Assembly (NCBI GenBank): GCA_013201405.1
Contig: JABMJC010000001.1
Coordinates: 13,878 to 77,877, forward strand
Direction of reading: 5' to 3'
From: Desulfobulbaceae bacterium
GTDB lineage: Bacteria > Desulfobacterota > Desulfobulbia > Desulfobulbales > Desulfobulbaceae
DNA: 64,000 nucleotides
The notes under the pieces: model-generated
What the model was told of the DNA's origin: nothing
The model's input: only the letters and a program-made list of their open reading frames with translations
Database searches by the model: none
Part shown: in pieces, positions 7,803 to 10,666 of the stretch
How the letters are laid out: every line of letters starts with the position of its first letter
Numbering within the stretch: position 1 is the first letter of the stretch
Program-made: the position numbers and the translations under genes

Positions 7803-9227
7803 CTATACTGCGCTCTCCTCCCGCAGCCAGCCATCCACATCGTTGGCCACGATCACCCCATAGTTGATGGCCCCGAGCCAGCCACTCATGATGATCCCCA
7901 CCGAACCCACATGGAAAACCCCCGGTGCCTCCTTGTGCAGGCTGCGGGAGATATCGAGCCCTTCGAACTTGGTGCCAAAGGAACTGCCCTTGCGGTGCAG
8001 GGTGTAGCGTTTAAAGGTACGTGGGGTGGCACTTTCGATTACGTCGATTTTGCTGCGCACCCCTGGCAGGTAACGCTCCAGATCGCAGAGACAGCGCTCC
8101 ACCATCTGCTCTTTTTCCTCTGCGTATTCCTGGCTGTCCAGCCCGGCCCAGTCATCGTAATTGGCGTTCATAGAGGCAACGATGGTGTAGTCTGGCGGTG
8201 CCTGCGGCCGGATTTTGGGGTAGTAGATGCTGAAGGTACGGCTCTTGGTGCGCATGTCGCGCAGGGCTTCAGAGGTGAATTCCTTTTCGGTTGAAGTGAA
8301 GAGTAAGTCGCCGATATCAGGAATGCTTTCGCCCTTGCGGATGCCGAAATACACTTGGCAACTGGAGTTGTTGATCCGTACCCCGGCAAAACGGTCGCGA
8401 AAATCTGGAGTAAAGGCGGCCTGACCCACGAGATTGTCCACGGTATTGACGATCCCGGCGTTGGAAATTACGGCCCGCGCCGGAATAAAACCGCTGTGTG
8501 TACCGCTGACCTCCACCCCCTTGGCCTGGCCCTTTTCCAGAACAATGCGTTTCACCCGGGTGCTGGTGCGGATATCCACGCCCTGCTGACGCAGTTCATG
8601 CTCCATCAGGGCAATGAGTCGGTCAGTGCCACCTTCAAAGGTGAACACACCCCGGTTCATGAAGTTAGAAAAAACAATGCCATAGGTAATGGCCGGTTCA
8701 TCTAAAGTGGAGCCGTTGGCATAGCTGATGGGCTCCAGTAGCAGGCGATGGATATCACTACGACCAGGAAAGAAGCGGGCAAAGAGATCGCGGGTGCGCA
8801 GGCGCTGATCGTCGTAAAAATTCATCCCTTCGATGGTGGTGAAAAATTCGCGCACCACGGCTTCGCTCACCCCAAAACGCTCCTGCAGCAGGCGGATGAA
8901 ATCATCCTTACTGAAGGTGGTGGTCAGCGAGAACTGGGGATTGTCAAAGACGATATTTTTCAGTTGGACAATGGAGTTCTGAATGGTTCTGCCCCAGTAT
9001 TTCCTGCAGGTTTTCACCATGCCGTAGGGGAAACCGTGCAGGGAGACATCAAAGATGTGGTTACCACGTTTGAACCAGGTGGCAAGTCCCCCCAGTTGGA
9101 AGTGCTGCTCTAAAAGAAGGACTTGGTGACCGGCGTCGGCCAGGCGTTTGGCGCAGGTGAGCCCACCCAGGCCAGAGCCAATCACAATGGCGTCGTAGTT
9201 GTTTTTCAAGGAAGATGAAGAGGTCAT
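7803..9227 (-). CDS. CrtI/RetSat-like FAD-dependent oxidoreductase (copy B)
   Basis: IVIGSGLGGL Rossmann motif, EQH..LGG, FDVSLHGFP, ATPRTFKRYT, GSSFG; start 9227 or 9248. Confidence 0.85.
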   Translation of the reverse strand: MTSSSSLKNNYDAIVIGSGLGGLTCAKRLADAGHQVLLLEQHFQLGGLATWFKRGNHIFDVSLHGFPYGMVKTCRKYWGRTIQNSIVQLKNIVFDNPQFSLTTTFSKDDFIRLLQERFGVSEAVVREFFTTIEGMNFYDDQRLRTRDLFARFFPGRSDIHRLLLEPISYANGSTLDEPAITYGIVFSNFMNRGVFTFEGGTDRLIALMEHELRQQGVDIRTSTRVKRIVLEKGQAKGVEVSGTHSGFIPARAVISNAGIVNTVDNLVGQAAFTPDFRDRFAGVRINNSSCQVYFGIRKGESIPDIGDLLFTSTEKEFTSEALRDMRTKSRTFSIYYPKIRPQAPPDYTIVASMNANYDDWAGLDSQEYAEEKEQMVERCLCDLERYLPGVRSKIDVIESATPRTFKRYTLHRKGSSFGTKFEGLDISRSLHKEAPGVFHVGSVGIIMSGWLGAINYGVIVANDVDGWLREESAV

Positions 9228-9289
9228 GCGATGATGTGGTGGTACCATGCCGTCACAGGCCTTGGCGCCTGGTGCGGATGGATCTTTGT

Positions 9290-10666
9290 TCAGTCCAGGA
9301 GGTGGCGGTTAACGATGCTGATGCCGCTGAGCATGGAGCCGACAATACCTAGATAGCCTTGGTCGGTGCCGGCGATGAACAGGTTGGACCATGGCGTTTT
9401 GCCGTCGGGAATCTTGATCGGGCTGCCATAGACAGCACCTTCTGCCTTACGGGTGAACCGCTCAATGGTCAGCGGGGTGAAGCTGTCTTGGTGCACAATC
9501 GCCTGTCCATAGGGACCGGTGTAGCGCTCACTGGCCTGCACCGCTGCCCTGCGGCATGCGGTTTTTTCCTGGGCATAGGTTTCACTGTCAAGCGCGCGCC
9601 ACAGCGGGTAGGAGGCAGGATTGGTTACCCGGATGGGGAAAAATTCCTTGTGGGGAATCCCCTCGAAGTTGTCCGGAAAACAGATAACCCCCCAGGAACT
9701 GTCCTGCAGAGTCTGCGGACGTCTGTAGCTGAACTGGTCGCTGCTGCTGTAAAAAATTAGGGTGCGATCCTGTCGGATAGAGCTGCGGACAGCATTGGGC
9801 AGCAGGGAAATGGTTTCAGTAAAACTCATCTTGCCGCTGTAGGTGGCACTGGGCGTCTGCCAACCGGAGATGCGGATGGTTTCGGGCAAACCAGCCGTGG
9901 AGAGCAGTGCCTCTGCGGTGTAGCTGCTTCCATCTGCCAGTCGAATGCCATAGGCTCGGTCATTCTTGATGAGGATCTTTTCTACTTCGGCCCGGTAGCG
10001 GATGGTGCCACCAAAGCCTTCGTACTGGTCGACCAAAAGGTCGAGAAAGGCCCGCATGTCTGCTTCCGGCCGGAAGAGCCCCTCTTCAAACACTGCCCGG
10101 AACATGATCACAAACTGGGAAAGGGCCATGTCGTTTTCTTCTGCATTGCCATAGAGCATCAGCGGCAGAAAGAGCATGTTTTCCAGGAGCGGCTCCTTGA
10201 GATAACTTGCTACAAAGCTGCGGGCCGAGCGCCACGGTGCGCTGGCAAAGGGATCATGGGCGGCAATGGCCCGGCGCAGCTGGTGAAATGCTTCGCCGCA
10301 GGCAGGAAAGAGTCGCTCCACCTCGGCTTGCAGCAAGTCTGGATCATTGGCAAAATGCAAGCTGCCCGCAGGAAAGGCGATTTCACTGCCCAACTGCTCC
10401 CGCACGGGAAAATCACGCCGGGAAAGCTGTAGTTGGCGGAATAACAGGTTGAGAGGTGCTTTTTTTCTTGTTGGCGGGGCGAAATTGGTGATGGCGTGCA
10501 GTCCAGTTTCCAGCAGATGTCCCTGAAACTTGTAGTAGGAGTTCAACCCGCCGGGACGGTAGTGCTGATCCACGATCAGGGTCTTTTTGCCAAAGCGGGC
10601 GGCGCGGATACCGGCTGCCAGGCCGGAGAGTCCGGCACCGATGATGATGAGCTGGTAATCAGACAT
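9290..10666 (-). CDS. CrtI/RetSat-like FAD-dependent oxidoreductase (copy A)
   Basis: IIIGAGLSGL Rossmann motif, ETGLHAITNF, FTPLTIERFT..GAVYG; likely start MSDYQ at 10666. Confidence 0.85.
   Translation of the reverse strand: MSDYQLIIIGAGLSGLAAGIRAARFGKKTLIVDQHYRPGGLNSYYKFQGHLLETGLHAITNFAPPTRKKAPLNLLFRQLQLSRRDFPVREQLGSEIAFPAGSLHFANDPDLLQAEVERLFPACGEAFHQLRRAIAAHDPFASAPWRSARSFVASYLKEPLLENMLFLPLMLYGNAEENDMALSQFVIMFRAVFEEGLFRPEADMRAFLDLLVDQYEGFGGTIRYRAEVEKILIKNDRAYGIRLADGSSYTAEALLSTAGLPETIRISGWQTPSATYSGKMSFTETISLLPNAVRSSIRQDRTLIFYSSSDQFSYRRPQTLQDSSWGVICFPDNFEGIPHKEFFPIRVTNPASYPLWRALDSETYAQEKTACRRAAVQASERYTGPYGQAIVHQDSFTPLTIERFTRKAEGAVYGSPIKIPDGKTPWSNLFIAGTDQGYLGIVGSMLSGISIVNRHLLD

Follow-up and report, generated by a model that had tools for sequence, protein, structure and literature searches.

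Two co-inherited CrtI-superfamily flavoproteins of a Desulfobulbaceae bacterium are predicted to set double bonds in acyl chains destined for Ole hydrocarbon synthesis

We analysed a 64,000-nucleotide stretch of DNA from a Desulfobulbaceae bacterium (the window; assembly GCA_013201405.1, contig JABMJC010000001.1, positions 13,878 to 77,877), in which two neighbouring genes at 7803-10666 encode distantly related flavoproteins, here called A and B. We propose that A and B are two co-dependent, double-bond-setting flavoenzymes that act on chains bound to acyl carrier protein (ACP) in a private type II fatty-acyl synthase, and that this synthase feeds the Ole pathway of hydrocarbon synthesis. Judged from comparative sequence data, this reading is moderately probable. 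A narrower version, which we put forward tentatively, is that both proteins are enoyl-ACP isomerases dependent on flavin adenine dinucleotide (FAD), in a route to methylene-interrupted polyunsaturated chains that is of type II, independent of oxygen and of polyketide synthase (PKS), and encoded by a seven-gene cassette spread by transfer. In the window, A and B are preceded by genes for the ACP and for a beta-ketoacyl-ACP synthase (KS):

11045..12334, minus strand: KS, a dedicated FabF-like beta-ketoacyl-ACP synthase (PF00109/PF02801), with orthologues upstream of ACP-A-B elsewhere.
10723..10974, minus strand: dedicated ACP of 83 residues (PF00550, E 6.5e-9), in which a DSM motif replaces DSL.
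9290..10666, minus strand: flavoprotein A, 458 residues, CrtI superfamily (PF01593), which remains together with KS-ACP in split cassettes.
7803..9248, minus strand: flavoprotein B, 481 residues (474 from Met8), CrtI superfamily (PF01593), with the motifs FD[VI]SLHGFP and GIIMSGWL.

The original prediction described A and B as tandem divergent paralogues with a common Rossmann start, a GLH/SLH motif and differing C-terminal regions, and it alluded to an ACP; all of these features were borne out. A and B shared 23% identity over ~460 residues (BLASTP, E 2e-21), and a profile-profile comparison aligned them across 408 columns (E 1.5e-40), indicating that the two are true full-length homologues and that a chance resemblance is excluded. 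Both contain an N-terminal GxGxxG Rossmann start with an acidic residue ending strand 2, and this start, together with GLH in A or SLH in B, was invariant across 11 A and 15 B orthologues. The C-terminal motifs were invariant within each family and specific to it, GAVYG...GTDQGYLG in A and GSSFGTK...GSVGIIMSGW in B. Each family kept the dinucleotide-binding start, a GG motif, the TPxT...GxxYG/FG block and a glycine-rich C-terminal motif, and each showed at least 100 invariant columns in its orthologue alignment. Neither A nor B resembles a decayed pseudo-enzyme, and both look catalytically intact.

Both families were clearly delimited. Among the 301 Desulfobacterota genomes sampled, B orthologues were 53-98% identical and scored >530 bits, the next-best match reaching at most 31% and 103 bits; A orthologues were 39-95% identical, with the next-best match at 29%. 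A diverges faster than B, identities between distant families being 40-44% for A and 55-61% for B. Against the curated NCBIfam models TIGR02734 (CrtI), TIGR02730 (CRTISO) and TIGR02733 (CrtD), with cut-offs of 238.1, 586.9 and 549.7 bits, B scored 98.0, 118.3 and 113.4 bits and A scored 65.5, 65.0 and 57.1 bits, so that both lie far under every cut-off. AF2 models (pLDDT 82.7 for A and 81.5 for B; pTM 0.84 each) predicted the three-domain FAD-binding CrtI/CrtD fold for both proteins. The best structural match by VIA-align was the CrtD structure 4REP, both for B (Z 33.0, rmsd 2.8, 431 aligned) and for A (Z 30.3, rmsd 3.4, 427 aligned), followed by PF1083, plant PDS and CrtI (5MOG and 4DGK, Z 24-27). 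The fatty-acid isomerase PAI (2B9W) gave Z 23.2 with B and 22.0 with A, no higher than generic amine oxidases. Model confidence is low at B 422-426 and 450-455 and at A 436-458, stretches that coincide with the most conserved glycine-rich C-terminal motifs, and these loops may become ordered only upon cofactor binding. Alignment of A and B to 4DGK and 4REP gave no residue-level pointer separating an isomerase from a dehydrogenase.

If A and B depend on each other, neither should often occur alone. B and A orthologues were found in exactly the same 16 genomes of the Desulfobacterota sample, and A was present in all 26 B-carrying genomes of a 141-genome Planctomycetota sample. Counting species-level loci with enough upstream sequence (67 in all), A lay immediately 5' of B in 50, within 10 kb in 7 and outside the locus in 10; all ten of the latter genomes carried A elsewhere, at 570-771 bits. 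This co-inheritance holds even though the two genes are unlinked in 11 of the 26 planctomycete genomes. A search among longer proteins also returned two A-B fusions, P0124 (988 residues) and P0126 (1020 residues), which are 62% identical to each other and join the two parts by a partly conserved linker of 45-60 residues. It is therefore strongly supported, at the level of sequence, that A and B work as an obligate pair.

Such fusions are very rare, and A and B were always separate genes in 69 related metagenome loci. In 16 metagenome loci, single tblastn alignments spanning A and B were rejected as fusions because 1-4 stop codons follow A. Planctomycete open frames of 852-1048 residues were likewise set aside as GC-rich overlap artefacts, with A and B in different frames. 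The search among longer proteins also yielded the metagenome protein P0127 (ENA, 950 residues), in which a B orthologue (55% identity at 89% query coverage) is fused to FabG-like short-chain dehydrogenase/reductase (SDR) domains; it would be a second type of fusion within the cassette and is known from its protein sequence alone.

The pair belongs to a larger unit. A cassette of KS-ACP-A-B-FabG*-FabZ*-FabI*, with or without oleABCD, was conserved in at least six phyla, recurring in Desulfobulbales, Nitrospinota, Dehalococcoidia/Chloroflexota, Nitrospirales, Planctomycetota, Verrucomicrobiota and Bacteriovorax, and B was carried by at least 598 species genomes. The KS-ACP-A-B order of the window recurred in 15 genome loci, and most of 80 species loci showed it too. 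Outside the host genus, FabG-, FabZ- and FabI-like genes follow 3' of B, with oleA, oleB, oleC and oleD next or nearby. In the host the cassette is in two parts, with KS-ACP-A-B flanked by alaS and moeA and FabG*-FabZ*-FabI*-oleABCD on two other contigs. One of them (C86) encodes FabG* (66%), FabZ* (57%), FabI* (72%), OleA (67%; NF006720, 438 bits against a cut-off of 285) and, at the contig end, the 5' part of OleB; the other (C97) encodes the 3' part of OleB, OleC and OleD. When the cassette is split, as in the window and in loci L088 and L101, A remains with KS-ACP and not with the ole genes. One genus (g18) keeps KS-ACP-A-B-FabG*-FabI* in a genome with no oleA (L021, G093:C28, 10723-15269), beside three tandem MBOAT-like acyltransferases and a glycosyltransferase. 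Since this lineage retains the pair without Ole, A and B would act upstream of Ole, with the acyl chain rather than the completed hydrocarbon as substrate. The same genome has one A but three copies of B, with pairwise identities of 70-79%; the two lone extra copies (in L022 and L023) stand in unrelated contexts, 70% identical to the cassette copy and 79% to each other.

We postulated that if the cassette feeds Ole as the Pfa synthase does in Shewanella, oleA-positive genomes should carry one supplier or the other. The counts in the two samples were as follows:

Desulfobacterota, 301 genomes: 27 oleA-positive; A+B only in 11, PfaA-like synthase only in 15, both in 1, neither in 0.
Planctomycetota, 141 genomes: 51 oleA-positive; A+B only in 26, PfaA-like synthase only in 24, both in 0, neither in 1.

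Together, 78 genomes were oleA-positive, 37 with A+B only, 39 with a PfaA-like synthase only, one with both and one with neither. All 26 planctomycete genomes with A+B carried oleA. The PfaA-like matches scored at least 632 bits in Desulfobacterota, often beside oleA, and at least 816 bits in Planctomycetota. The complementarity was seen in two phyla and many families, and the A+B cassette appears, from these gene distributions, to replace the large polyunsaturated fatty acid (PUFA) synthase as the supplier of chains to Ole synthesis.

Two genomes deserve mention beside these counts. In the only Desulfobacterota genome with both suppliers (G242), a B12-binding radical SAM gene and a 105-residue open reading frame (ORF) are inserted between A and B (L018:6034-6954, G242:C223). 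A planctomycete genome (G426) with oleA and a PfaA-like synthase contains a truncated A-like gene (C59:12217-13140, residues 3-308), and no B was found in it; the truncated gene may be a remnant of supplier replacement or may reflect an assembly gap.

Lipid measurements from cassette-carrying taxa bear on the product. Desulfotalea psychrophila makes C31:8 and C31:9 hydrocarbons, and the authors report no PKS route to PUFA and leave the double-bond positions undetermined (PMC2649909). The B orthologue of this species is 66% identical to that of the host and has both signature motifs. The hydrocarbon n-C31:9 is 'often present in planctomycetes' (PMC6995999). In Shewanella, C31:9 derives from preformed polyunsaturated Pfa chains together with Ole, and a pfa-like cluster has been proposed as the supplier in Geobacter (PMC3098273).

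We propose that A and B would be two co-dependent FAD enzymes working with the KS, the ACP and the FabG-, FabZ- and FabI-like proteins, each acting on ACP-tethered intermediates at a different double-bond-setting step. The chain so produced would be unusual, most probably polyunsaturated and of ~C16; OleABCD would condense it head-to-head into C31 polyenes, and in a few lineages other acyltransferases would use it instead. In the Pfa synthase, trans-2 to cis-3 and trans-2 to cis-2 isomerisations are ascribed to FabA-type domains. The chemistry that we favour for A and B is a pair of redox-neutral, FAD-dependent enoyl isomerisations of these same two kinds, by which they would stand in for those domains. 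A C16:4(4,7,10,13) chain could be built by an elongating synthase if the dehydration double bonds were kept, and this route would need the two isomerisations in alternation. With a single FabZ-like dehydratase beside two flavoproteins in the cassette, the two isomerase activities would map onto A and B. Flavin-dependent, redox-neutral double-bond chemistry has precedents in CRTISO, PAI and the type 2 isopentenyl diphosphate isomerase, and FabX is a further precedent for flavin-dependent double-bond chemistry (PMC8626469). The main alternative chemistry would be allylic dehydrogenation in two successive steps, in the manner of PDS then ZDS.

The original prediction left open whether the two proteins catalyse sequential steps (desaturation, followed by isomerisation or reduction) or form an obligate heterodimer of a catalytic and a structural subunit. 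Obligate pairing stood, by co-inheritance; the catalytic/structural split is disfavoured, as the complete cofactor motifs and the many invariant residues in both families favour two catalytic steps. That one protein would be catalytic and the other a structural or regulatory pseudo-enzyme partner is unlikely, although the strict co-occurrence, the prevailing order of A then B, the rare fusions and the faster evolution of A would all suit it. Besides the intact motifs, the rarity of fusions counts against this reading. A physical A-B complex may exist, with co-inheritance and the two fusion proteins as indirect evidence, but a strict 1:1 complex sits poorly with the unlinked genes of 11 planctomycetes and with a genome that carries three B copies and one A. 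It is more unlikely still that A and B are post-condensation desaturases that extend unsaturation to both sides of the central double bond in the finished Ole hydrocarbon or its precursors. The nearest folds are those of enzymes that desaturate carotenoids, which are hydrocarbons (4REP, 5MOG, 4DGK), the cassette is tightly associated with oleABCD, and PDS with ZDS shows that paralogous desaturases can work one after the other. However, A stays with KS-ACP in split cassettes, genus g18 keeps the pair without oleA, and the ketoreductase, dehydratase and enoyl reductase of the cassette would serve no purpose were Ole supplied with ordinary fatty acids; in Shewanella, moreover, the double bonds are already in the acyl chains before condensation (PMC3098273).

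A third possibility, to which we likewise give little credence, is that the cassette makes another special chain, such as a conjugated polyene, or a monoene or diene with trans or shifted double bonds, in which case A and B would pair a desaturase with an isomerase or saturase in the style of RetSat and CRTISO. B scores highest with the CRTISO and CrtD models, enzymes of the CrtI family typically produce conjugated double bonds, the sink in genus g18 is a set of MBOAT acyltransferases, and the Desulfotalea double bonds were not placed (PMC2649909). The mutual exclusivity with PfaA-like synthases among oleA-positive genomes of two phyla nevertheless points to an equivalent product, and cassette-carrying taxa (planctomycetes, Desulfotalea) are reported to make C31:9. 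Finally, a conventional role in carotenoid desaturation or isomerisation would agree with the database names of A and B (phytoene desaturase family), with the PF01593 matches and with the weak TIGR02734 matches. The scores are far under the cut-offs, and the neighbours in the loci examined were fatty-acid and Ole genes, never crt genes. In the host genome (G000; 2.46 Mb, 185 contigs, 99.99% complete), A and B were the only CrtI-like genes, no match to the phytoene/squalene synthase family PF00494 was found, and the neighbours of the pair (KS, ACP, alaS and moeA) offered no crt context. The same genome gave no PfaA (TIGR02813), the best match being 136 bits to stand-alone acyltransferase and KS genes against a cut-off of 1010, and a profile search found no membrane fatty-acid desaturase (PF00487). 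A carotenoid role is therefore practically excluded.

Several points weigh against our proposal that A and B set double bonds on ACP-bound chains for Ole. The complementarity counts overstate their statistical weight because related genomes are not independent. The A-B fusions are known solely as database protein sequences, and the lipid measurements come from other species. The known reactions of CrtI-type enzymes are conjugated or allylic desaturations of isoprenoids, not the formation of methylene-interrupted double bonds. Neither an electron-transfer partner nor any other cassette gene separates an isomerase from a dehydrogenase. Literature searches found no biochemical, genetic or functional study of any cassette member. 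In the only published test, two CrtI homologues of Kuenenia, whose orthology to A or B is not established, lacked CrtI activity and gave no lycopene in E. coli (PMC4790861).

Phytoene-dehydrogenase-like genes in type II fatty acid synthase (FASII) clusters have been described before, in D. psychrophila (DP2405/DP2406, DP1860) and in Kuenenia stuttgartiensis (kuste3336, kuste3607), and were proposed as anaerobic desaturases for PUFA, polyunsaturated hydrocarbons (PUHC) or ladderanes (Rattray et al. 2009, PMC2649909; Javidpour et al. 2016, PMC4790861). The Desulfotalea pair resembles A and B in that adjacent PF01593 proteins are encoded in a fatty-acid-type cluster of a Desulfobulbales member and were proposed to set acyl-chain double bonds. 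The 2009 paper, in contrast, tied that pair to radical-SAM enzymes and ladderanes, with no link to oleABCD and no contrast with a Pfa synthase. The D. psychrophila B orthologue (P0182) presumably corresponds to DP2405 or DP2406, and kuste3336 and kuste3607 are set beside A and B by description. Type I pfa-like clusters with ole have been reported in Geobacter and planctomycetes (PMC3098273, PMC6463001). Compared with Shewanella, where Pfa and OleABCD yield hentriacontanonaene, the cassette shares the downstream Ole pathway and a chain supplier adjoining oleABCD; in the multidomain type I megasynthase Pfa, however, FabA-type dehydratase domains introduce the cis double bonds, whereas the cassette consists of discrete type II enzymes and two flavoproteins.

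CrtI, CrtD, PDS/ZDS and CRTISO are like A and B in fold, FAD-binding start and the TPxT...GxxF/YG block, but differ in that A and B score below the family cut-offs, have other C-terminal motifs, lack a phytoene source and lie in an ACP/KS context. PDS and ZDS are two paralogues that act in sequence, and CRTISO uses reduced FAD for an isomerisation that is redox-neutral. Among flavoenzymes, isomerisation or dehydrogenation at fatty-acyl double bonds has precedents in PAI of P. acnes and FabX of H. pylori, the latter acting on acyl-ACP (PMC8626469). The fold of FabX differs from that of A and B, with flavin mononucleotide and a 4Fe-4S cluster; PAI shares the general fold, yet is no closer than generic amine oxidases. 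We take UfaD of furan fatty acid synthesis to be a comparable precedent. To our knowledge, none of these three enzymes works as one of a pair or in an Ole context.

Turning to the remaining features of the locus, the four-gene row is flanked as follows:

12315-15044: alaS, on the KS side.
6469-7731: moeA, on the B side.

The minus-strand order is alaS, KS-ACP-A-B, moeA, with spacers of 70, 56 and 41 nt within KS-ACP-A-B. In a profile search, KS scored 296 bits against TIGR03150 (cut-off 494); alignment showed an intact Cys178/His316/His354 triad and an acyl-pocket segment divergent relative to housekeeping FabF. KS orthologues, 57-82% identical, lie immediately 5' of ACP-A-B in other genomes, and ACP orthologues, 50-80% identical, occupy the equivalent position. 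The longest KS frame begins with a TTG at 12334 and overlaps the alaS end by 20 nt (12315-12334); because orthologues are 412-418 residues long, the true start is probably ~12-15 codons downstream. Similarly, Met8 may be the true start of B, as its relatives have 467-469 residues. A start of A at the upstream TTG at 10708 is unlikely, the ATG start giving the 458 residues listed above. The larger overlapping ORF at 10659-10952 was rejected as the ACP gene, as it is in the wrong frame and has no Pfam match. A promoter and terminator scan of 6300-12800 returned counts not clearly above those of shuffled sequence. Metatranscriptome contigs (X17-X20) match segments of the KS, ACP, A and B genes, and a contig of 866 nt spans ACP and A; such contigs prove neither transcription nor a single transcript, and the stretches they leave uncovered carry no meaning.

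DNA near-identical to that of the host was found in landfill, wastewater and digester metagenomes. The host is a strict anaerobe whose monounsaturated fatty acid synthesis is unexplained by known routes. Its genome encodes a FabB-type KAS I (L007:204-1445, contig C81, minus strand; NF005935, 657 bits against a cut-off of 630) adjoining an SDR gene, and no FabA: the PF07977 matches were two FabZ-type genes and a weak dehydratase-like match on contig C69. A role of A and B as a FabA substitute in general anaerobic unsaturated fatty acid synthesis was dropped as the main role because the pair occurs in only 16 of the 301 genomes of the phylum and tracks oleA. Ladderane synthesis was also set aside; the host belongs to Desulfobulbaceae and is not an anammox bacterium, and Desulfotalea makes no ladderanes (PMC2649909). 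A second accessory lipid cluster (L009, contig C117, 1199-7123, minus strand) encodes an ACP, a PRK09116-type KS, a PlsC-type acyltransferase, a B12-binding radical SAM protein, a radical SAM/SPASM protein and a lipid A-type acyltransferase; the cluster is reminiscent of the radical-SAM FASII loci described in work on Desulfotalea and Kuenenia, although a CrtI-like gene is missing from it.

Many bacteria, including Desulfotalea, many planctomycetes and Opitutaceae, make C31 polyunsaturated hydrocarbons without Pfa, and the source of their chains has been an open question since 2009-2010. The idea that such a pair desaturates acyl chains dates from 2009, and the cassette had already been noticed, though not characterised. 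What is new here is the analysis of A and B as a pair, their genome-wide co-inheritance including unlinked genes, the rare natural fusions, the two-phylum count of complementarity with Pfa, and a lineage in which the pair occurs although Ole is missing. No candidate other than the A+B cassette follows the distribution of oleA and, in two phyla, shows mutual exclusivity with Pfa. If our proposal is right, a compact, oxygen-independent set of small soluble enzymes would make polyunsaturated chains, with relevance to lipid biochemistry, to biomarker geochemistry (n-C31:9 in anoxic sediments) and to PUFA and olefin engineering, and the chemistry of the CrtI superfamily would extend from isoprenoids to acyl-ACPs. 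Should A and B prove to be isomerases, the cassette would represent a third route to PUFA-type chains, besides O2-dependent desaturases and Pfa megasynthases.

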